Virus record (IMG/VR): IMGVR_UViG_3300045988_162656 | Origin: a virus | Taxonomy: Duplodnaviria; Heunggongvirae; Uroviricota; Caudoviricetes | DNA: 64,000 nt | Direction: 5' to 3' (one strand) | In this document: positions 14,390 to 59,856 of the stretch, one piece after another | Layout of the letters: the number at the start of each line of letters is the position of its first letter | How positions within the stretch are numbered: the stretch's first letter is position 1 | Translations under genes and position numbers: made by a program | The notes under the pieces: model-generated | The model's database searches: none | What the model was told of the DNA's origin: nothing | The model's input: the letters and a program-made list of their open reading frames with translations, nothing else

Positions 14390-14552
14390 AAAATCGATTT
14401 TAAAGCGTCTGGGAAGGGGGTCTAGTGGATTCTGTAGTGATGTTCAGGTCTGGAGTCTCTGATACAAAACAGCCTGCTTCCGTATATTAATAATTAATAT
14501 GTAGTTATTTATATATATACAGAAGCAGGCTAATTACAGACGCCAGAACAAA

Positions 14553-15146: not shown

Positions 15147-15328
15147 CTTCTTTCTCGATAGGTAAGCAAATACCTATTTTTGCATTTGATTTTATGTATG
15201 GCAATCAAATAAAACGCGCCAGAAATGCGAACAAGAAGCTCTCTGGCGCGTTTTTTTGGTGCTGGGTATGGGTTATCTTACCCAGCACTATAAAGCTCTC
15301 TATGGGCTTTATTTTCAGTAGGGGAACG

Positions 15329-16138: not shown

Positions 16139-16298
16139 GTAAGTCTCCTTCTGTTTAGTTGCATTTGCGTTTCGATGGCTACATTTTGACTAAACCTATC
16201 AGGCGGAAAAGTATTAAATACAGGCAGGAAATGATTGAAAGGCGACTGTTCTTTAAAAGAAAGCCTGCTTCAAACTCTCTTTAAAGCAGGCTTTTGTT

Positions 16299-16856
16299 TT
16301 ACACAGTTTCAGAGGGTAATTTAAAAAATCCGTATTTATTACGTGCCTTAAAGAAGCATTGCATCATTAAGTTTGTGTCATATAAGGCACTATGTGCTTT
16401 GGCATGATCGTATATAAAGCCAAGAGAGAAGGCCAATTCTTCAAGGCGAGGACGTTTACCGTCTTCTGTGGCCCACAATCCCGATAACATAGTATCTATA
16501 ACGGGAACGTCTGGCAGTCTTACTCCATACCCTGAAAACTCGTGTCTAATAAATGGTATATCAAACGCTTCGCCGTTATGAGCAACCCACGCACTACATG
16601 CCTCCATATAAGCGCCAATTTCGCTAGCATGATTTGACAACAAAGGTTCAGCTGCGAGCTGTTCTAATGAAATGCCATGAACGGCTTGAGCTTTCGGATC
16701 TATGTTTCTGCGAGGGTTAAAACGCATCTCCAGACTATCAATATGTCTCTGTGTCTCCAGTTCATAGCGGGTAATTGCGATTTCAATAATTTTATGACCA
16801 GCAAGGAAATCCAGTCCCGTAGACTCGATATCGATGCCTGCAACAATCGTTGTCAT
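16299..16856 (-). CDS. DnaQ-like 3'-5' exonuclease (DEDD family)
   Basis: GIDIESTG, HNGEAFDIPF, HSALYDT motifs. Confidence 0.65.
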   Translation of the reverse strand: MTTIVAGIDIESTGLDFLAGHKIIEIAITRYELETQRHIDSLEMRFNPRRNIDPKAQAVHGISLEQLAAEPLLSNHASEIGAYMEACSAWVAHNGEAFDIPFIRHEFSGYGVRLPDVPVIDTMLSGLWATEDGKRPRLEELAFSLGFIYDHAKAHSALYDTNLMMQCFFKARNKYGFFKLPSETV

Positions 16857-36905: not shown

Positions 36906-36967
36906 GTGTTTTCCTATGTGGTTGTTATGCGAAAATAATAAGTAAGTACTTATATATTTTCAAGAGA

Positions 36968-50438: not shown

Positions 50439-52352
50439 TTAGGTTGGGTTGTTGATGCTAATGGTAAGTGTTTCGATAGCAAGATCATGAGTTTGGTTGT
50501 TTGTTATATCTGTTAAAACAAAAGCCTCATCACCAAGAGCAATATTGTCTTTAACCAGCTTGAATTTACTCCCCGCCTTGCCATCGAGAACGGGAATTAC
50601 AGTTCCTGTGCCTTTCTCATATTGCAACTCAAGAGTGTGCCAATTGTTGTCGTAGTCACCATATGAGTCTATCTGAACATTTCGATTATTGCCTGTCCTG
50701 TGCATCATAATGTTCAACTTGCCTCCAATTGTTTGAAGGAAGAAGTTAGCCAGAAACAGGCTCCCAGTACCGTCGAATGATATATCGTCAGCAACAGGTT
50801 TACTGGTTTTGTAATATATACCAAAGCCAAACTTAGCTTTTTTTGGATCAGGGTTTCCAGATAATTTAAACTTACAAAGTAATTTACCTCCATTCTCAAG
50901 AAGAGTCTGTGCTATGTCAGTAGCTTTACTGATCGTCCAAGTTTCGTTGGAAACCGCTTTAGTTAAAGCAATTGCTTTTCCGTTTTCAACTGACTGAATA
51001 TTTGCACCAGTTACAGTCCATCCTTGTTCAGTAGCGACATCACCACCAGCTCCAGTTAAGGAAATAACCGTTCGCGGGGTTGGAGTTGTGACAATGTTGT
51101 CATTTTTAGGTTGAGTAGGTTGTTCTTGTTTAATAATCTCACCTGTAACGCCATTCACAAAAGCAGATGATTTCGCTGAATGTGCAAGCAGCGCAGTTGC
51201 GAGACGATCAGATATTATTCCGCGTCGCTGCCATGAACCAAAATGACTCTCTCTACTCTCGGAAGTCCATGTTTTATTATCCTTGCGATGACCGGAACCA
51301 TAATAGCCAATAGATGTGATGTCTGGATCATCTGTAGGGCTATTGGTTAATACGTTATTATCATTCTCATCTTTCATGAATGGAACGAAATAAATTGCTT
51401 GTGAGGTTTTTCCCTTATAACCACCATAAACAATTTCGTACTGTTTTGGATATTTGTTTTTCCACCAGTGGGTCGTATCGCCACAAATCCAGGGTACATT
51501 TGCAGCACTTCCGAAAACACATTGTGCGTCGTATTGAGATAGCTCTTTTCTGAAACCTTCGACCATCTTGAGGAACAGTTCGTTATGCTGCGAGTACTTG
51601 CCAGTTGCCAAATCAGCTTCGCCTTGCATCCAGACAACACCAAGAAATACATTCTTTTTGTTTTTACTTAAGGCCGCTTTTGTTCTGGCTACAATATCCT
51701 TATACAAAGGAGTATTTAATCCCCATTTTAAAGATGATTCGATTGCACCTGACTCTTCATAATATTGGCCTTCAGAGCCTGTAACAGTGAAACCAGAACC
51801 ACCTCTTCCGCAAGGAACGAGCAAAATACCTGCGTTTGCTGGAATGAATGGTAATAGTTTTTTGCCAATGTGTAGTCCCTGACCAACACATCCATATTCA
51901 GAGTCGTTTGCTTTTGGATGCTTGAATTTAGTCATGTCTTGTACATCATGAAGACAGTGATCAGCGGGAATTATTTCATTGTACTTACAGGCAAAACCAC
52001 CAGGTTTAATATTGCTGCGTCGAGCTAACTGTTTTACGCGAGGATGTGGCCGATCAAAAGTTTTTGGCATAGGCAGTCCTTCGCCGTATGACATTGAGTT
52101 GGATTGACCTGCGATAGTAACTACATAATAATAGTCAGGCTCTTCATCTTCATTTGATACCGGTGTGGGCAATTGTGATAAATCACCAGATCGCACAATT
52201 GCTTGATTGTACGCATTTGGTCCGCCCTTACTTGGTTCAACAATGTTTGGTGACTCGAAAGGTTGCCAACCCTCTGCGATTTTCTTCGCAAGTTTTTCTC
52301 TAAGCTCTTTGCTTGATGATGCTGACAAAATATCATAGTCAATGAATGACAT
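50439..52352 (-). CDS. SGNH/SASA-family (sialate O-acetylesterase-like) esterase domain protein with C-terminal beta-rich domain
   Basis: GQSN motif (IAGQSNSMSYG) near N-terminus; 637 aa. Confidence 0.55.
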   Translation of the reverse strand: MSFIDYDILSASSSKELREKLAKKIAEGWQPFESPNIVEPSKGGPNAYNQAIVRSGDLSQLPTPVSNEDEEPDYYYVVTIAGQSNSMSYGEGLPMPKTFDRPHPRVKQLARRSNIKPGGFACKYNEIIPADHCLHDVQDMTKFKHPKANDSEYGCVGQGLHIGKKLLPFIPANAGILLVPCGRGGSGFTVTGSEGQYYEESGAIESSLKWGLNTPLYKDIVARTKAALSKNKKNVFLGVVWMQGEADLATGKYSQHNELFLKMVEGFRKELSQYDAQCVFGSAANVPWICGDTTHWWKNKYPKQYEIVYGGYKGKTSQAIYFVPFMKDENDNNVLTNSPTDDPDITSIGYYGSGHRKDNKTWTSESRESHFGSWQRRGIISDRLATALLAHSAKSSAFVNGVTGEIIKQEQPTQPKNDNIVTTPTPRTVISLTGAGGDVATEQGWTVTGANIQSVENGKAIALTKAVSNETWTISKATDIAQTLLENGGKLLCKFKLSGNPDPKKAKFGFGIYYKTSKPVADDISFDGTGSLFLANFFLQTIGGKLNIMMHRTGNNRNVQIDSYGDYDNNWHTLELQYEKGTGTVIPVLDGKAGSKFKLVKDNIALGDEAFVLTDITNNQTHDLAIETLTISINNPT

Positions 52353-52577
52353 AATCGTTACTCCTTTAACGATAAACTTTAGCTAAAATCGATACGATTT
52401 TAGCAGTTAAAAAACGACAATAAAATATAAGAGTAATGTATGAAAGAACAATAAAAATTGCGTAAATGGATATGTGTAAAATATGTGGAATTTCACACAC
52501 AGCGTTGAGCGGTCTGGTTTATGTTAGCGGAGTCTTAATCGAGTTGATTAAAAGGCCAAACCGCTCAACGCTGTGTC

Positions 52578-52664
52578 TGGCGGAGAGTAATGGAATCGAA
52601 CCATCATCGCTTGCGCAATGGGACGGTTTTCAAGACCGCTTGAGCACCATGCTCCCTACTCTCC
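52578..52664 (-). tRNA. tRNA-Ser (anticodon TGA), type II with long variable arm
   Basis: hand-folded: acceptor GGAGAGT/ACTCTCC, anticodon loop CTTGAAA, T-loop TTCGATT, 3' CCA encoded. Confidence 0.8.
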
Positions 52665-52888
52665 GGCCGTTGTGGTGGCCGGTACTGAATCTCCGGCATA
52701 CGGTGCAGCCAATTAGGACTACGGACGATCACCGCTCGCGAAAGGGAAGATTTGCGGCCGCATTTCCCTAACATCCAAGAAAGCTATCGCATTAGTCTGC
52801 GAATCCACCACAACGGTAAGATCACTACCTTTCGACCAGTCATTGTGCACATGAACGACGATTAACCGTAATGATCTTATCGTTGTAT

Positions 52889-52964
52889 TGGTGCCGGTTA
52901 GCGGACTCGAACCGCTGACATCCTGCTTACAAGGCAGGCGCTCTACCAACTGAGCTAAACCGGC
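52889..52964 (-). tRNA. tRNA-Thr (anticodon TGT)
   Basis: acceptor GCCGGTT/AACCGGC, D-arm AGCTCAGTTGGTAGAGC, anticodon loop CTTGTAA, T-loop TTCGAGT, CCA encoded. Confidence 0.85.
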
Positions 52965-52968
52965 AATT

Positions 52969-53055
52969 TGGTGGGGAGTGATGGAGTCGAACCACCCGAG
53001 TTGCAATGACAGTAGATTTACAGTCTACCCAGCTGCCCCTACGGACTAACTCCCC
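52969..53055 (-). tRNA. tRNA-Tyr (anticodon GTA), type II
   Basis: acceptor GGGGAGT/ACTCCCC, anticodon loop ACTGTAAATCT, long variable arm, CCA encoded. Confidence 0.8.
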
Positions 53056-53060
53056 TAAAT

Positions 53061-53135
53061 TGGCGATGGTGGGTGGATTCGAACCACCGACCAGTTGGTT
53101 AACAGCCAACTGCTCTACCGCTGAGCTACACCATC
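53061..53135 (-). tRNA. tRNA-Asn (anticodon GTT)
   Basis: acceptor GATGGTG/CACCATC, anticodon loop CTGTTAA, T-loop TTCGAAT, CCA encoded. Confidence 0.85.
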
Positions 53136-53895
53136 AATTCAGCACTGCCAGTATTTATTACTCAACAGTGCCAATCGCGGCGGTGTTAGTTTCTGCCAGG
53201 AAACGCACCGCTACTTGCACTTTTTCGTTAGTGTCAGACGCTTTCGACTTCTCTCAATAGAAGGCAAAATCTTTAAGTAGATGATGTTTCTGAGGACAGC
53301 ACCTACTTTGTAATTTATACAATGTGATGTATGGAATCATTTGTTGTGGAAAAGTGGTTAAACCTACACAACAATCCTGTCTTCACAACGTTGAGGCCAC
53401 TACTCCGATTGAATGTTTGCCCAACATGTTACATATCAACGCTCGCCGGTATCTCTGTGAATAGAACCTTAGAATTGATAAAAATGTAATGGCCTCAACG
53501 TTGTGTGCTGGCTAACCATACCAGCCGGGCTACGTCGCCGCTTTTTAACCCAGTATAAACGACATAATTGAACAAAATGACGTAACAGAATGGGCGGTCA
53601 GTGGCTAAGAATCCGGGAGTCATATGGAGTTGAAAATATACCGACCGCCCATTCTGTTACTTCATCGGAGGGAACATGAGTGTTCCCTCCTGCGTTCTGC
53701 AATCACACTCGCTCAGTGTGTCCCATTTCGGTAACGAGGCTGGAAACTGACCTCGCTGGTGTTTGGCTTATTAGGCTACTGCCAGATAGACTTCTTCGTT
53801 TGCACTTGTATTTAAGTTCAAACAGTCGCATCTCAACGAAAACAAAGTCATCTTATACACAAAGGATAAGTAAGTAAATACTTATCGATATGTTT

Positions 53896-54186
53896 TTATT
53901 CGGTTGTGACTTTTTTGATCAAGGCCACTCTACGACTAGGTGTTCTTGTGATGGTGGCAGTGAATCGTTTCGCTTGGATAGTAATGGTTTCGTTCTCCTT
54001 AAGTTGCCCGTAGCGAGTTTCCACCAGGGTGCCAAGACGCCACAGACCATCATCGATACGTTTATGACTAGCAAATTTAATCAGCAACAGTTTTACGACT
54101 AACTGACCTACGTAAAAGGCGAATGCGACTCCGACCGCTAAGAAATAGGTGGCCAACCACCAGTCCCAAGAAGTTAAATTGCTCAT
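53896..54186 (-). CDS. small membrane protein
   Basis: 96 aa, one N-terminal TM helix; ATGA-coupled. Confidence 0.35.
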   Translation of the reverse strand: MSNLTSWDWWLATYFLAVGVAFAFYVGQLVVKLLLIKFASHKRIDDGLWRLGTLVETRYGQLKENETITIQAKRFTATITRTPSRRVALIKKVTTE

Positions 54187-54335
54187 TTTCTAACCTTTGT
54201 TTCATGAACTACCCGATACACACGCTTTCCGATGCACAGTGTTTTGGTTTTAAGTTCCTGCTTAATTAAATCACGACAGATGCCGAAGCCGATAAGGAAG
54301 CCACCAATAAAAGCTAATGAGATGTATGGAATCAT
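54183..54335 (-). CDS. small membrane protein (50 aa; below ORF-track cut-off)
   Basis: hand translation MIPYISLAFIGGFLIGFGICRDLIKQELKTKTLCIGKRVYRVVHETKVRK; stop/start overlaps on both sides. Confidence 0.3.
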   Translation of the reverse strand: MIPYISLAFIGGFLIGFGICRDLIKQELKTKTLCIGKRVYRVVHETKVRK

Positions 54336-54547
54336 TTTAACACTCCTGATTCTACTAATTGCTGTAGCAATACTTTCCCTTTATCAGTTAACTGGTAGTT
54401 GGCTGAGCACCACGTTTCCGAAATGTTTGCAACCAACCCTAAACGCTCTAAATTAGCTCGCGTTTTAGGCTTCCAGTACTGAGGGAACTCCGGCCACTTA
54501 CTTATTTCATGAAGCGTTTCTTTCTCCCGTTTACTTAATACGATCAT
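54332..54547 (-). CDS. hypothetical protein
   Basis: 71 aa, coupled downstream of ligase gene. Confidence 0.35.
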   Translation of the reverse strand: MIVLSKREKETLHEISKWPEFPQYWKPKTRANLERLGLVANISETWCSANYQLTDKGKVLLQQLVESGVLK

Positions 54548-57177: not shown

Positions 57178-57252
57178 ACCAACTCCTAGCTAACAGATGA
57201 AAGTATTCTCACAGAAAGATAAGTAATCATCTACTTATTTTAAAGGTGATTG

Positions 57253-58506
57253 TTATGATAGAGCCTTAATGCCCAAAACCTTGCTTTGCAACTCCAACTG
57301 TTTGGTATACGGTTTTGCCCGATAATAGGCTTTGATAATTTGTTCTGGCGTTGCACCGCCCGGGTCGAGTCCTTCCTCACCCAAACACGCAACTTTGACA
57401 TTAAGACCGATACTGGTCAGTCGCCTGGCTGCGGCCATCGTGTTGCGTATAGCTTGCTTTTCACTATCCCACATCATGATCACATTACGTAATCCACGCG
57501 CCTTGAGCGTCAGGAACGCGCCCAACTGATCTTCTGCATCCTGAGTGGTGTTGCCAGATAGATGCATCCCGAACGTTCCTATTGGCTCCACGTAATCACG
57601 TAATGTTTCTTCGTCGAAAATAGCTCGTTTGACCCCCATAACATCGAACGCACCCTCACAGACAACTACAGTCTGTTTGCCGACTGCATTATGGCCGTTG
57701 TAGAGAAATTTACCTGAAGCTGGAAGCTGCATAGGAAAGAGGTAGCGGCGTTCTGCTGTACCGGTAATGTCTCGTCCCTGAAATGTCTTCATTACCCCAT
57801 CCAGATCGTAAACCGGTATCAGTATTCGCATATCGAATATCTGCCCTTTTACCTGATCTGTATACGGATCTACATAAGCGTGCTTGCCTTCGACGCAGTA
57901 TCGTAGGTCAAAATACTTTGCCATTTCAGGTGATATGTTTCGTTCAACCAGATAATCTGGAAGACGGCCATCTATAGGAAGCTCGTAATGACGAGGGAGT
58001 GCAACTGGCCCCTCTAACTCGACTGTGCTTGCAAGCACTAGCTCTTCTTTCTTTGGTGCCCACCCCTGGGAAAGAAGAGCGTTCTGCACATATTCCTCGA
58101 ACTGTCGTCGTGATTTACCGCTGTAGTGCTTGAGGAAGACCAGCTTATTGAACTGAATCTCTTCGGGATGATCACCAGCGAAGCATTTGCCGACGCCACT
58201 GGTCAGATTGAAATATACCTTCCAGTTGGAGCTGCCGCATACCGGACACTCCTTGATATTCACTTCACGACCGCGAGTACTCACGCCTCCACGTCGATAA
58301 ACGATACCTTCAGTATCCAACCATTGTTCAAAATCTAATTCGGCAATTAGCTCTTTCAGCTCGCTCACGATAATTCCACTTTTAACAGGCAATATTGTGA
58401 CCAATCTAAATGTTGATATAACATAAAGGCTCATGTGTTTTTCTTTTGTGGTTTGGCAAAAGAAAAGTTGTTTCACCAATGAATCAAGCGTGGAGGTGTT
58501 CTCCAC
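57253..58506 (-). CDS. DNA primase (zinc-ribbon + TOPRIM)
   Basis: CPVCGSSNW...CFAGDHP zinc-binding region and VVVCEGAFDVMG TOPRIM motif. Confidence 0.7.
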   Translation of the reverse strand: MENTSTLDSLVKQLFFCQTTKEKHMSLYVISTFRLVTILPVKSGIIVSELKELIAELDFEQWLDTEGIVYRRGGVSTRGREVNIKECPVCGSSNWKVYFNLTSGVGKCFAGDHPEEIQFNKLVFLKHYSGKSRRQFEEYVQNALLSQGWAPKKEELVLASTVELEGPVALPRHYELPIDGRLPDYLVERNISPEMAKYFDLRYCVEGKHAYVDPYTDQVKGQIFDMRILIPVYDLDGVMKTFQGRDITGTAERRYLFPMQLPASGKFLYNGHNAVGKQTVVVCEGAFDVMGVKRAIFDEETLRDYVEPIGTFGMHLSGNTTQDAEDQLGAFLTLKARGLRNVIMMWDSEKQAIRNTMAAARRLTSIGLNVKVACLGEEGLDPGGATPEQIIKAYYRAKPYTKQLELQSKVLGIKALS

Positions 58507-58515
58507 GCTTATTTT

Positions 58516-59856
58516 TTAGGTAACGTCTAAGATTCGCTCAATGAAGCGCATTTGTTCGAGGTTTTGTTTAACGCGAATGCTGATCCCTCCCTGCTGGTTA
58601 CGTGAACCAGCAAAGTAGAGACGAGCCTCTCCTTTCGCTTCTTCTTCTTCGGTTTTGTTGATCGTTATTACCAGGTCAGCAATACGTACTTTTTCGATGT
58701 TGTCGGCAGCGTGCATCATTGTGGCAACTTCTGACGCGCCACCTTCACGGTTTGTCTGCGATGCCGTGATCCCAGCAACGTTATGCTTGTCATAAAGAGC
58801 ACGTAAATCGGTGTAGATACTACGAATGTTGGCGCGATCATCACGAAGGTCATAACTGGCACGCATCAAATCTGCGTAGTCGACAACAACCATGTCAGGC
58901 ACCATGCCGTTGGCTTTCATGCTGTTAAGCATACGGTCCAGATCTGCCGGTGACATACTTCCTGACGGACGCTCAACCACCCACAAACTACCAATCCCCT
59001 TCGTGGCTCCCAACTCTGCCAACTTACGATGAACCTCATCGCGCCGTTCCACCAGCTTGGACATTTCTGTCTCCGACAATCTTGCATCAAAACGGTCGGA
59101 TAAAATGGTGGTGTGAACCTCCAGCGAGAGATACAGAACATTGTAGCCAGCAAGCGTTGCGTTTATGGAAAACTCACCCATTGCGGTCGATTTACCGGAT
59201 TTAGCGAACCCCATGAAGAGCACCATTTCACGCTTCGCCCAGCCTTTTTGGTACAGCAACCTATCGAGCAGAGGGAGTCCAGTTGTAATGCTGTTTGGCA
59301 CATACTCCTCTGAAGCCTCATATTCACGCGCTTTCAATCGCTCACTTGCGGAGGTGTAGTAGTCATAGATTCCGGTCGCTTCGTTCGATCCAATCTGCTG
59401 AACCTTAGCCATGATTGCCATCGCTCCCTGAAAGTCGCCTTTCTCTTTCAGTTCAGCAGCCTTAATCAGAGCATCATCAAACGCTACACTTTTTGCGAAG
59501 GTTGATACCTGGTCAACCATGTACGAGGTATCGGACAATTTTTCTGCAAGAATGCGCTTAAACGCAGCAACAACATCGGCGAATAGTTCCTCACGGATAG
59601 TCTTATCGCGTTTCGCACGCTTAAGCATATCCAGAATTGCAGATGAAGAGGGCGCGCTCTTGTACATACGGTAATAGCCCGAAACCATATTAACCAATAT
59701 GGCATTGGCCGCATTGGCAAATTGGCTAGGCACAACCAGATCTCCCGCACGAGTAAGAAACTCGTGATCACGACAAAAATATGCCGTCAGTCTGTTCTGG
59801 AAATCTTCATCAAACTCTTCGGACAGCCCGCGTCCTGTATGGCAAAGTTCTGTCAT
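58516..59856 (-). CDS. DnaB-like replicative DNA helicase
   Basis: Walker A GFAKSGKST, Walker B VVVDYADL, RecA-like C-terminal domain. Confidence 0.8.
   Translation of the reverse strand: MTELCHTGRGLSEEFDEDFQNRLTAYFCRDHEFLTRAGDLVVPSQFANAANAILVNMVSGYYRMYKSAPSSSAILDMLKRAKRDKTIREELFADVVAAFKRILAEKLSDTSYMVDQVSTFAKSVAFDDALIKAAELKEKGDFQGAMAIMAKVQQIGSNEATGIYDYYTSASERLKAREYEASEEYVPNSITTGLPLLDRLLYQKGWAKREMVLFMGFAKSGKSTAMGEFSINATLAGYNVLYLSLEVHTTILSDRFDARLSETEMSKLVERRDEVHRKLAELGATKGIGSLWVVERPSGSMSPADLDRMLNSMKANGMVPDMVVVDYADLMRASYDLRDDRANIRSIYTDLRALYDKHNVAGITASQTNREGGASEVATMMHAADNIEKVRIADLVITINKTEEEEAKGEARLYFAGSRNQQGGISIRVKQNLEQMRFIERILDVT

Follow-up and report, generated by a model that had tools for sequence, protein, structure and literature searches.

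The locus described here recalls several known RNA systems. The nearest is tmRNA (SsrA), whose tag in E. coli reads ANDENYALAA. Long stalks cleaved by RNase III occur in the 16S/23S rRNA operon, at the R sites of T7 early mRNA, and in the lambda N-leader and sib, and RNase III and RNase E together free DicF from a polycistronic precursor. Phage tRNA regions harbor structured RNAs as well: the T4 tRNA region encodes stable RNAs species 1 and 2 (rnaC/rnaD), and ROOL and GOLLD are large noncoding RNAs found near phage tRNAs. We know of no earlier tmRNA relative in which the tag template is present and the tRNA-like domain missing. The converse has been described in mycobacteriophage DS6A, whose TLD-only mini-tmRNA has the tRNA-like half and lacks the tag (PMC4131195; PMC11915505), and in the tmRNA censuses of 2014 and 2025 phage ssrA is limited to mycobacteriophages, Bacillus phage G, and DS6A.

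The window that we analyzed—the whole stretch of 64,000 nucleotides—comes from an SSU5-like phage-plasmid, and the helices at issue lie in its noncoding tRNA operon (Table 1). An earlier note had listed five perfect pairings in this region, and a direct reverse-complement check finds four of them exactly as given: 52667-52678/52805-52816 (126 nt enclosed), 53384-53398/53491-53505 (92 nt), 53582-53599/53643-53660 (43 nt), and the 10-bp hairpin 53667-53676/53681-53690. In the fifth, 52501-52513 does pair, but its partner is 52560-52572, one base off the 52561-52573 that had been given. Within 52441-53700, four perfect inverted repeats reach 12 nt or more, whereas 500 shuffles of that interval that preserve its dinucleotides yield 0.02 on average and never more than 1; the remaining 1260-nt tiles of the window hold 0-1 such repeats each, and in a scan of the whole window the tRNA/tag region alone had long stems whose loops measure 30 nt or more. 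With mismatches and G·U pairs included, helix lengths rise to 19-26 bp, more than previously given, and a further one (I3), overlooked before, becomes apparent. The minus-strand fold z-scores of I1, I2, I3, and I4 range from -3.9 to -10.4. The view that none of the repeats folds as a canonical tRNA holds, as ARAGORN and Infernal return just four tRNAs, none of which is a repeat element, and neither ARAGORN nor the Rfam tRNA model calls a cloverleaf in the five repeat-bounded elements.

Table 1. Features of the tRNA/tag region of the window, in RNA order
Feature	Positions	Strand	Remarks
Putative promoter with operator-like palindrome	53850-53885	-	TAAGTA-N-TACTTA at 53867-53884; -10-like TATAAGAT at 53850-53857
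tmRNA-like tag module	53691-53845	-	begins the operon, just outside the interval flagged earlier
Module 5' motif	53825-53845	-	UUGUUUUCGUUGAGAUGCGAC
Tag frame	53768-53803	-	GCA AAC GAA GAA GUC UAU CUG GCA GUA GCC UAA UAA (ANEEVYLAVA, then two stops)
Pseudoknot PK2	53720-53755	-	downstream of tag
PK3 stem	53704-53720	-	downstream of tag
Hairpin, 10 bp	53667-53690	-	between tag module and I1
Long stem I1	53577-53602/53640-53665	-	arms of 26 nt; 37-nt loop with conserved CCCGG
Short hairpin GCUGG...CCAGC	53507-53526	-	GGCGACGUAGCCCGG in front; kept in all SSU5-like relatives
Long stem I4	53384-53403/53486-53505	-	arms of 20 nt; 82-nt loop with degenerate D-loop-like and T-arm-like motifs
tRNA-Asn	53061-53135	-	ARAGORN; Rfam tRNA model 75.5 bits
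tRNA-Tyr	52969-53055	-	ARAGORN; Rfam tRNA model 32.0 bits
tRNA-Thr	52889-52964	-	ARAGORN; Rfam tRNA model 76.5 bits
Long stem I3	52805-52828/52868-52891	-	arms of 24 nt; begins exactly at CCA end of tRNA-Thr; z = -3.9
Helix I7	52667-52678/52805-52816	-	126 nt enclosed; loop with tRNA-5'-half-like fragment
tRNA-Ser(UGA)	52578-52664	-	ARAGORN; best Rfam match tRNA-Sec, 46.6 bits
Long stem I2	52494-52517/52556-52579	-	arms of 24 nt; begins exactly at CCA end of tRNA-Ser; z = -10.2

Covariation and strand bias show, at the level of sequence, that these helices are RNA structures under selection on the tRNA strand and that they belong to a conserved array with a tmRNA-like module. All of them lie on the minus strand, as do the four tRNAs. 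Where the arms deviate from perfect pairing, the minus strand has G·U and the plus strand C·A, with single mismatches at most besides, and the minus-strand fold is the more stable in five of five helices (for I4, -47.8 versus -39.3 kcal/mol). The same asymmetry is seen in 62 distinct long hairpins beside tag modules (90+ loci), in which internal G·U pairs number 106 when the tag/tRNA strand is read and 40 for the opposite one and the sense fold is the more stable in 43 cases, these 62 sequences not being independent of one another. Comparison with the tRNA regions of relatives, proposed earlier as a check, reveals that the helices are kept and that their pairing is maintained by compensatory changes in pMT1, pHCM2, SSU5, Klebsiella and Cronobacter plasmids, and P1-like phages. 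In alignments that are small (9-10 sequences) and owe their double changes largely to one or two divergent relatives (L076, paralogues), I1 is 98.4% paired over 25 pairs in 10 relatives with both sides changed in 7 pairs, I2 is 97.8% paired over 20 pairs in 9 relatives with both sides changed in 4, and a set made up of I4, its paralogue I3, and the P7 homologue is 98.8% paired over 19 pairs with 4 double-changed. The covariation score is reached by 0/500 shuffles in each of these sets, and pairing breaks down once one arm is shifted by 1-3 columns against the other. The 750-nt gap of this region is kept whole in pMT1, pHCM2, SSU5, and Klebsiella, Enterobacter, Citrobacter, Kluyvera, and Cronobacter plasmids, with block-like conservation and no codon pattern; protein-coding content was rejected, since relatives have indels that break both its minus-strand ORFs (34-56 aa) and an ORF of 95 aa over the tRNAs.

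Shared ends (CACAAC.../...GUUGUG, in I1 GUAAC.../...GUUAC) and compensated middles mark the long stems as one paralogous family; I3 and I4, for example, match at their ends and are each compensated in the middle. Stems of this family lie beside tag modules and tRNAs in P1, P7, D6, HK620, Carvaje, and lambdoid prophages, and their kinship across many phage lineages had escaped the earlier note. Stems homologous to I3 recur in P7, D6, and Klebsiella and Cronobacter plasmids, and in SSU5-like plasmids an I2-type stem always follows the last tRNA of the cluster. The 5' RNA strand of I7 (GUUGUGGUGG) overlaps the 3' arm of I3, which makes I3 and I7 alternative helices. I7 is the weakest of the helices, as its minus-strand fold z is only -2.6; 2 nt (52665-52666) separate its end from the 5' end of tRNA-Ser, and the corresponding order—a long-stem 3' arm GUUGUGGUG, some 85-126 nt, CACCACAAC, and a tRNA—is found in Carvaje, L025, HK620, P7, and D6. 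I1 and the 10-bp hairpin fold together (53572-53695, minus strand) at -61.7 kcal/mol (z = -10.4). The position of the latter is occupied by a hairpin in all relatives, with stem sequences that differ (GGAGGGAAC/GUUCCCUCC here, AUAGGGCAUG/CAUGCCCUAU in pMT1, SSU5, and pHCM2, GGUGGC/GCCACC in L076), and the stem at 53507-53526 is flipped in L076 (GCCAGC/GCUGGC), a compensatory change. What the stems enclose includes T-arm-like and D-loop-like elements in some relatives, which are degenerate in this window: the I2 loop contains a small hairpin and a conserved AAGACUCCGC motif that is like the 3' half of a T-arm, and a direct repeat in the I7 loop (52719-52736) resembles tRNA-Tyr at 53039-53056.

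The tag module has several traits of tmRNA (RF00023, and the two-piece forms RF01850 and RF04321). It contains a 10-codon frame that starts, as at a resume codon, from GCA with no initiation signal, after UAAAU/ACAAGU, and that ends in an Ala-rich hydrophobic C terminus and a stop codon located in a small helix. Its tag pattern, AN[DE]xx[YF]LAVA, is comparable to the E. coli tag, and two covarying H-type pseudoknots lie downstream, both with stems that show compensatory changes when P1-, lambda-, Felix-, and SSU5-type modules are compared; upstream of the tag, no PK1 equivalent was discerned. In the 5' motif, UUUUCG..GCGAC bears an apparent resemblance to the conserved GGAUUCGAC region of tmRNA. 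At 92 loci the frame exists in 21 nucleotide versions, each of 10 codons plus stop (33 nt), encoding 11 peptides of the pattern AN[DE]xx[YFM][LM][AV][AV]A. A conventional longer ORF is excluded by the 1-2 nt indels and in-frame stops upstream of GCA in the alignment of relatives, and an alternative frame, AUG CAA ACG..., was discarded, its peptides and lengths being variable among relatives. A stem enclosing the module, formed by the upstream 3' arm and the downstream 5' arm, was likewise rejected, as the own arms of each hairpin are specifically compensated (in Carvaje and in the window).

Unlike tmRNA, the module has no acceptor stem with G3·U70, no T-arm, and no 3' CCA end, its RNA would begin just ~5-10 nt ahead of UUUUCG, and its Rfam scores are 14-26 bits versus gathering thresholds of 47-84, which no module match reaches. 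The beta_tmRNA model scores 14.4-17.3 bits on the window (gathering 84) and tmRNA_permuted 25.6 bits on relative L082 (gathering 47), in both cases covering essentially the tag only. ARAGORN calls no tmRNA in the window or in ~25 related loci, the only T-arm plus acceptor candidates across the 64-kb window are the four tRNAs, and in the complete HK620 genome, which has the module, a tRNA-like domain is not detectable. Scans around all modules return only real tRNAs and a minority of T-arm-bearing inserts, with strict T-arm-like hairpins outside real tRNAs in 14 of 88 module contexts. The parallel with the mini-tmRNA of DS6A (Hudson et al. 2014, PMC4131195; PMC11915505) is that of a phage-borne fragment of tmRNA architecture, and some long-stem elements in relatives resemble closed tRNA-like domains, but here the half that is kept is the tag and pseudoknots, and the tRNA-like half is absent or degenerate.

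Homologous modules are found in P1, P7, D6, HK620, and lambda/P22-like, Felix O1-like, Vi01-like (~157 kb), and Carvaje-like phages, a homology that we consider established by BLAST E-values (1e-7 to 1e-12 for the Felix-like and HK620 matches) and pattern scans. The module is present in prophages of 137 of the 5426 complete E. coli genomes and, in the records examined, including these 137, is never annotated as an RNA feature; EHEC O26 strains are among the carriers of the prophage form. The strict tag pattern occurs in only three Enterobacterales species representatives, plus likely chance matches, which indicates that the module is mainly phage- or plasmid-borne. A literature search, which covered papers other than the P1 genome paper, found nothing on phage or plasmid tmRNA-like RNAs of this kind. 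Both the module and the promoter just upstream of it on the minus strand (53691-53885) had been overlooked in the earlier note.

The explanation that we favor, with a probability of roughly 60%, is that a polycistronic transcript of structured RNAs and tRNAs carries the stems as stalks for processing or insulation. A single minus-strand noncoding transcription unit of ~1.4 kb would extend from ~53885 down to 52490, with the operator-flanked promoter followed by the tag module, the hairpin 53667-53690, I1, and I4 in its 5' part, and by tRNA-Asn, tRNA-Tyr, tRNA-Thr, I3 with the alternative I7, tRNA-Ser, and I2 in its 3' part. The tag module would be a tmRNA derivative with the frame ANEEVYLAVA and pseudoknots and without tRNA-like domain. 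As near-perfect dsRNA, the stems would be RNase III-type substrates that sequester the spacer beside each tRNA and beside the tag RNA, delimit single RNAs and release them from the polycistronic precursor, and they could protect RNA ends. We infer co-transcription from the upstream promoter, RNase III cleavage, a role in trans-translation, and the function of the tag module. A stalk for RNase III is at least about 20 bp of near-perfect dsRNA beside mature RNAs, and the stems of 19-26 bp abut tRNA ends. As in the known stalks, about two helical turns of such dsRNA flank or separate functional RNAs in a polycistronic transcript; unlike in these, the stems close their own short inserts (37-126 nt) rather than a mature RNA, cleavage is only putative, and there are conserved terminal sequences, loop motifs, and overlapping alternative helices. 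Since RNase III has no sequence requirement, the conservation of the stem ends CACAAC/GUUGUG and of loop motifs (AAGACUCCGC in I2, CCCGG in I1) hints at an additional or different function, for example protein binding or tRNA mimicry. Moreover, a stable 24-bp hairpin right after the CCA could hinder rather than help tRNA 3' maturation.

Structured noncoding RNAs within a phage tRNA cluster are also what T4 species 1 and 2, ROOL, and GOLLD represent. Unlike these, the array here is a series of long hairpins plus a tag module, and it has no sequence or model match to them: at permissive thresholds, Rfam scans of 51500-54500 and 53100-53950 gave only the tRNAs and sub-threshold tmRNA tag matches, and no ribozymes, ROOL, GOLLD, or DicF. 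There is a further parallel in P1 (NC_005856), in which a DicF-like region in the Pban leader lies immediately upstream of the P1 tag module and would leave the polycistronic transcript via RNase III and RNase E. However, its sequence is different, its annotation (68791-68892) ends where the module starts, and the window has no DicF match.

The putative promoter is weak, with 8/12 consensus matches. It scores under the threshold of a generic promoter scan, and its activity is therefore something that we infer. The positions of its hexamers are kept in 11 relatives with a variable spacer, and the TAAGTA-N-TACTTA palindrome is present at two more intergenic sites of the window, where 0.01 would be expected by chance. 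Upstream of module homologues in wV8 and lambdoid contigs there are near-consensus promoters (TTGACA-17-TATAGT and TTGACA-17-TAGATT), and in P1 the tag/stem unit is downstream of the C1-controlled Pban, according to the record annotation. A Y. pestis sRNA-seq study (Yan et al. 2013) reported two pMT1 sRNAs (sR082 and sR083), neither of which is the homologous locus.

The earlier note had offered three readings of the repeats, two of which—processing signals and small stable RNAs—are of the right kind, judging from covariation, G·U strand asymmetry, and stems that abut tRNA ends. That the long-stem elements are themselves functional small stable RNAs is nevertheless rather unlikely in our view. 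They would then be mimics derived from tRNAs or from the tRNA-like domain of tmRNA, with an extended acceptor-like stem around T-arm/D-loop remnants, that would partner with host factors or serve as their decoys (for example, SmpB, RNase P, the CCA-adding enzyme, EF-Tu, or defense nucleases that target tRNAs), or else separate tRNA-like pieces of a split tmRNA working together with the tag module, which they always accompany. Stems in relatives do enclose clear T-arms (GGGUUCGAAUCCC in L016, L023, and D6; AUGGGUUCGAGUCCCAU and GGAUGUUCGUAGCG in Carvaje; GUGGG-UUCAACU-CCCAC in L079 and L039), with a weak Rfam tmRNA match to a T-arm of this kind, the I2 and I4 loops of the window retain degenerate T-arm/D-loop motifs, and loop motifs are conserved more than a mere stalk would need. 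However, the strict non-tRNA T-arm-like hairpins, confined to the few contexts mentioned above, number 0 in the window and 0 in the complete HK620 genome, the 3:70 pair of the Carvaje element, as read from its sequence, is A-U and not the G·U of alanine identity, and no element has a CCA end. The contents of the stems also seem dispensable, since P7 and D6 have different inserts in the same stem.

The different inserts of P7 and D6 also speak for repeats that act at the DNA level, where they would be leftovers or edges of mobile cassettes (MITE-like insertions or recombination hot spots) by which phages exchange tRNA genes and inserts, a reading that we regard as improbable. The third of the earlier readings, remnants of mobile insertions, is correct in part and for one block only: 52665-52891 plus tRNA-Tyr is missing in phage Cyrano, and 52555-52994 is ~93% identical in the unrelated P1-like phages P7 and D6, from which we conclude that this block moves horizontally. 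In pMT1, similarity to the other SSU5-like relatives decays ~60 nt beyond the I4 homologue, with the caf1R side of the F1 capsule locus at most a few hundred nt farther on. Nevertheless, the block is not a classical transposon remnant, because its arms covary and have no fixed terminal-repeat sequence. Arms that differ between copies and are complementary within each argue for selection for pairing rather than for a transposase-binding sequence, the G·U asymmetry favors the transcribed strand, and homologous recombination at conserved tRNA and stem sequences explains the horizontal spread equally well. The signs of a MITE or IS remnant are missing: terminal repeats are not fixed, no target-site duplications were seen by eye, and copies are not dispersed but confined to the tRNA/tag region of the 64-kb window. 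Integron attC sites were also rejected, as the core-site order RYYYAAC...GTTRRRY is not observed, I2 being reversed (GTTGAGC ... GCTCAAC) and I4 off consensus. Still less plausible, to the point of being very improbable, is a role as transcription terminators or attenuators, by which the hairpins would set how much transcription continues into the tRNAs and the genes beyond them. The hairpins are stable, contain GC, and lie in an intergenic leader, I3 and I7 are alternative pairings, and P1 and P7 have a genuine terminator-like hairpin with a U-tract ahead of the module, but I1-I4 and the 10-bp hairpin are all without a U-tract, none of the five elements appears in a terminator scan of 51500-54500, intrinsic terminators do not typically have loops as long as 37-126 nt, and the annotated late terminator tQ of HK620 is a separate element downstream of the array.

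If the stems are indeed processing stalks, a structured-RNA system that is conserved yet absent from annotations would exist in the tRNA regions of a number of phages and phage-plasmids that serve as models or matter in medicine, among them P1, HK620, Felix O1-like phages, pMT1 (Yersinia pestis), and pHCM2 (Salmonella Typhi). The long-stem elements and the tag module would then count as two new RNA families, and spurious ORF annotations in these regions could be fixed. More tentatively, enterobacterial phages and phage-plasmids—P1, SSU5/pHCM2/pMT1, lambda/P22-like prophages, and Felix O1-, Vi01-, and Carvaje-like phages—may possibly carry an unrecognized tmRNA derivative that reprograms or decoys host trans-translation, the stems being its processing or assembly helices. 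Such a derivative would have kept tag template and pseudoknots, would lack the tRNA-like domain, would have long-stem tRNA-derived elements alongside, and would be expressed from regulated promoters, Pban in P1 and pR' in HK620. It would add an altered tag, AANDxx[YF]LAVA, in which the SspB-binding part is kept and the ClpX-binding LAA end is changed (tagged proteins would end in AANEEVYLAVA here and in AANDDLMMVAA in P1), and it might work with host or split tRNA-like pieces or decoy host tmRNA-SmpB. This raises the testable question of whether infecting phages alter or disable ribosome rescue and ssrA-tag proteolysis, and P1 genetics would permit a direct test. A minor observation concerns tRNA-Ser, whose tRNA-Sec score, just under the gathering score of 47, is explained by its long variable arm.

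The principal finding of this analysis is that the inverted repeats around the tRNA cluster form RNA helices under selection on the tRNA strand, which constitute one family and belong, together with a tmRNA-like module, to a conserved array. The window, which by its sequence belongs to an SSU5-like phage-plasmid, finds its closest matches in E. coli and Shigella plasmids of ~110 kb and in phages CMS-2020a and Cyrano. Four of the five pairings listed in the earlier note are perfect reverse complements when checked directly; the fifth, 52501-52513/52561-52573, is off by one base, the true partner of 52501-52513 being 52560-52572. In 52441-53700 there are four perfect inverted repeats that reach 12 nt, where 500 dinucleotide-preserving shuffles give 0.02 on average, and nowhere in the 64-kb window outside the tRNA region is there a long stem whose loop reaches 30 nt. 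With a few mismatches tolerated, the helices exceed the lengths first described and include an additional stem, I3, which shares the strand 52805-52816 with I7, so that these two helices are alternative to each other. ARAGORN and Infernal give four tRNAs only (Ser, Thr, Tyr and Asn, all minus strand), in agreement with the earlier view that none of the repeats folds as a canonical tRNA. The tRNA-Ser has tRNA-Sec as its top Rfam model (46.6 bits vs a gathering score of 47), a consequence of the long variable arm; its anticodon is UGA (Ser), not UCA. Within the 126-nt loop of I7, a fragment 78% identical to the 5' part of tRNA-Tyr precedes a stem-loop whose own loop is 10 nt long; this may be what is left of a tRNA.

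Features of the array and its surroundings. Helix lengths are from the repeat scan with a few mismatches tolerated (I7, 12-nt pairing); covariation values in the I4 row are for I4, its paralogue I3 and the P7 homologue together; the last column gives shuffles reaching the covariation score.
Feature	Coordinates	Strand	Length	Sequences	Pairs	Paired	Changed on both sides	Shuffles
I1	53577-53602/53640-53665	-	26 nt	10	25	98.4%	7	0/500
I2	52494-52517/52556-52579	-	24 nt	9	20	97.8%	4	0/500
I3	52805-52828/52868-52891	-	24 nt
I4	53384-53403/53486-53505	-	20 nt	9	19	98.8%	4	0/500
I7	52667-52678/52805-52816	-	12 nt
I7 loop	52679-52804	-	126 nt
tRNA-Tyr-like fragment in I7 loop	52719-52736
Matching 5' part of tRNA-Tyr	53039-53056
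tRNA-Ser(UGA)	52578-52664	-
Hairpin	53667-53690		10 bp
tmRNA-like module	53691-53845	-
Tag frame	53768-53803	-
TAAGTA-N(0-8)-TACTTA palindromes	36939-36952, 53867-53884, 57220-57237
Short-loop palindromes with T-runs	14471-14531, 15208-15257, 16255-16299, 58475-58521
96-aa ORF	53896-54186	-

Both strand and pairing point to RNA. The minus strand carries the tRNAs and flanking genes, and the arm mismatches are all G·U on that strand and C·A on the plus strand. For all five elements the minus-strand RNA fold is the more stable (-47.8 vs -39.3 kcal/mol for I4), with z-scores down to about -10. Among 62 distinct long hairpins adjoining homologous loci of other phages, internal G·U pairs number 106 on the tag/tRNA strand vs 40 on the other and the sense fold is the more stable in 43, with p-values that are indicative only, the hairpins being related to one another. 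This asymmetry speaks against a protein-bound DNA palindrome, from which none would be expected. The arms of I1, I2 and I4 covary, and in I1 a shift of the partner strand by 1-3 columns lowers pairing to 24-54%. At the position of the 10-bp hairpin, relatives have hairpins of unrelated sequence. The ends CACA(A/G)CG...CG(U/C)UGUG are common to I2, I3 and I4, whose middles differ with compensation, and I1 has related ends (GUAAC.../...GUUAC) and a middle not shared with them; the four stems form one paralogous family. Comparison with relatives, proposed in the earlier note as a check, was made by aligning the minus strand of 53136-53900 with eleven of them—Yersinia pestis pMT1, Salmonella Typhi pHCM2, phage SSU5, and plasmids of Klebsiella, Enterobacter, Citrobacter, Kluyvera and Cronobacter—and the entire 750-nt gap proved to be kept in blocks. 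Since invariant runs of 30-50 bases coexist with frame-breaking indels, and hairpins hold their position while changing sequence, the small ORFs predicted there are not credible as genes.

Directly upstream of the stems, just beyond the interval originally flagged, lies the tmRNA-like module. Its tag frame, GCA AAC GAA GAA GUC UAU CUG GCA GUA GCC UAA UAA, translates as ANEEVYLAVA followed by two stops, closely similar to the E. coli tmRNA tag ANDENYALAA; relatives have ANEDTYLAVA, ANDNQYLAVA and ANEYTYLAVA. In their alignment, 1-2-nt indels just 5' of the tag break every longer ORF, as is characteristic of a tmRNA resume codon. Across 92 loci the tag occurs in 21 nucleotide versions, each exactly ten codons plus stop, encoding 11 peptides that all match AN[DE]xx[YFM][LM][AV][AV]A, and variation peaks at third codon positions. 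Two H-type pseudoknots follow, with stems that covary between lineages: PK2 stem 1 is found as GUGAGG/CCUCAU, GCAAGG/CCUUGU, GCGAGG/CCUCGU or ACGGGG/CCCCGU, stem 2 as CCGA/UCGG, CCAG/CUGG, CCAA/UUGG or GUCG/CGAC, and both stems of PK3 vary to a comparable degree. Tag conservation and covarying pseudoknots thus define a conserved RNA of ~150-170 nt, which corresponds to the half of a tmRNA that comprises the mRNA-like part and the pseudoknots. Two-piece tmRNA models of Rfam match the tag at sub-threshold scores only. Sensitive BLAST finds homologues in ~300 phage records, among them Felix O1-like phages, Klebsiella phage Carvaje with its relatives, and HK620 and HK633, which are P22-like; a pattern scan finds 73 IMG/VR contigs, mostly lambdoid, and 137 of 5426 complete E. 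coli genomes carry an unannotated homologue. The P7 module as query matches P1 itself, P7, D6, RCS47 and SJ46, and more weakly Vi01-like (~157 kb), T1-like and other phages.

What sets the module apart from a tmRNA is the other half. No tRNA-like domain was found for it by a tmRNA caller, by a T-arm/acceptor scan of the window, where such combinations amount to the four tRNAs only, or in the complete HK620 genome; ARAGORN called no tmRNA in the window or the relatives' loci run. The 38.3-kb HK620 genome, whose module lies between pR'/qut and the late terminator tQ, yielded neither a tRNA nor a tmRNA, and nothing tmRNA-like among Rfam matches even at E values as high as 1. In modules with their own promoter (TTGACA-17-TATAGT in wV8, TTGACA-17-TAGATT in lambdoid contigs, and a putative weaker equivalent in the window), the RNA could start only ~5-10 nt before a conserved UUUUCG motif. 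We regard the module as a tmRNA-derived variant and, because no tRNA-like domain was found, do not claim membership in the tmRNA family. The wV8 module is directly followed, at L012 1702-1783, by a tRNA-like sequence that has 3' ACCA, a UCU anticodon-like loop and an acceptor stem of 7 bp but lacks a D-arm; the stem includes G3·U70, the alanine identity pair. ARAGORN does not call it and the record does not annotate it; phage Michonne has a normal tRNA-Arg(UCU) in its place.

In every lineage a long stem of the I1-I4 family follows the module, and often another precedes it. In some relatives clear T-arms and a D-loop-like motif lie inside these stems (GGGUUCGAAUCCC in D6, L016 and L023; AUGGGUUCGAGUCCCAU and GGAUGUUCGUAGCG in Carvaje), and in L079 and L039 the T-arm has a UUCAACU loop, like the T-loop of E. 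coli tmRNA. The I2 loop in the window holds AAGACUCCGC, resembling the 3' half of a T-arm, and the I2 and I4 loops look like degenerate versions of these motifs. T-arm-type inserts are optional, strict T-arm-like hairpins being present in 14 of 88 module contexts, and P7 (L091 ~2000-2090) and D6 (L092 ~2000-2110) have, on the minus strand after tRNA-Thr, the same long stem (CACAACAGGUAAGGG.../...CCCUUACCGUUGUG) around entirely different inserts, a hairpin plus T-arm in D6 and neither in P7. The stems therefore do not have uniformly conserved content; they probably derive from tRNA- or tmRNA-like acceptor stems. In HK620 (L013/L105, 15873-15982 and surroundings) two long-stem elements share with the module the stretch from pR'/qut to tQ, and all three would accordingly belong to the short constitutive pR' transcript and the Q-antiterminated late mRNA leader.

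Upstream of the window's module, a TAAGTA-N-TACTTA palindrome overlaps -35-like and -10-like hexamers. Its three intergenic occurrences (0.01 expected by chance) all lie upstream of minus-strand genes, each followed by a TAAGAT/TGAGAAT -10-like element, and may represent a phage-specific regulated promoter. We infer that module, stems and tRNAs are co-transcribed. The homologous unit of P1 (L104, NC_005856) lies behind the C1-repressed Pban promoters and a 'dicF-like region' (68791-68892), both annotated in the record; this region, with a terminator-like hairpin, is directly upstream of an unannotated tag module (ANDDLMMVAA). On pMT1 (L090), a motif similar to the palindrome adjoins the sRNA sR083; one Y. 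pestis sRNA-seq study lists no sRNA at the pMT1 homologue of the unit.

We consider it most likely, at a probability of roughly 0.6 for the package as a whole, that the stems are processing or insulating stalks. They would form near-perfect double-stranded RNA of about two helical turns that abuts tRNA ends and sequesters the spacers, for which the stalks of rRNA operons and the R sites of T7 are proposed analogues; an RNase III-type activity, of which we are less confident, would cut them to release tRNAs and tag RNA. The suggestion that the repeats are processing signals is partly borne out: covariation and G·U asymmetry show helices under selection on the tRNA strand, with processing itself as the probable role. 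An unlikely competitor sees the stems as stable RNAs that mimic tRNA, or that act as partners to the module. It is kept alive by features that stalks would not need, namely conserved stem ends, loop motifs and alternative helices that overlap (I3 with I7, and a comparable pair after I4).

Boundaries of a cassette at the DNA level, an improbable explanation, and terminators, a very improbable one, both fit the data less well than stalks or stable RNAs. Mobility of the cassette is apparent, and the idea of mobile remnants holds as far as horizontal exchange is meant. Cyrano is without the block of I7, I3 and tRNA-Tyr, its tRNA-Ser directly adjoining tRNA-Thr, and 52555-52994 (tRNA-Ser, I7, I3 and tRNA-Thr) is ~93% identical to P7 and D6, otherwise unrelated P1-like phages, which indicates that unrelated phage-plasmid families have recently exchanged the tRNA/stem cassette horizontally. 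Covariation of the arms speaks against their being transposon ends. In pMT1 (L002 ~2250-2400), which retains the tag module, I1 and I4 and has lost the tRNAs, similarity to other SSU5-like relatives fades ~60 nt past the I4 homologue; the F1 capsule locus is then reached, on its caf1R side, in no more than a few hundred nt.

We rate module and stems together as a tmRNA derivative combined with helices that resemble processing stalks. Neither is covered by a family in Rfam 15, and we found no published description of such a module or stems in the searchable literature, beyond which a paper is conceivable. The tmRNA censuses of 2014 and 2025 limit phage ssrA to mycobacteriophages, Bacillus phage G and DS6A, which has the tRNA-like domain only (Hudson et al. 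2014, PMC4131195; PMC11915505). GenBank/RefSeq annotation at module sites is absent, spurious (hypothetical proteins) or 'dicF-like region'.

The short-loop palindromes with T-runs elsewhere in the window have no relation to the long-stem family and are probably ordinary intrinsic terminators. Upstream of the array, the 96-aa ORF goes under the name 'C-type natriuretic protein' in the annotation of SSU5 and of many plasmids, a name that seems to have been passed on in error for a small membrane-like protein. In Shigella sonnei plasmids NZ_CP053753 and CP104415, the homologue of 52300-53950 aligns in two pieces and spans 1915 bp vs 1651 bp, which implies an additional insertion of ~265 bp within the array.
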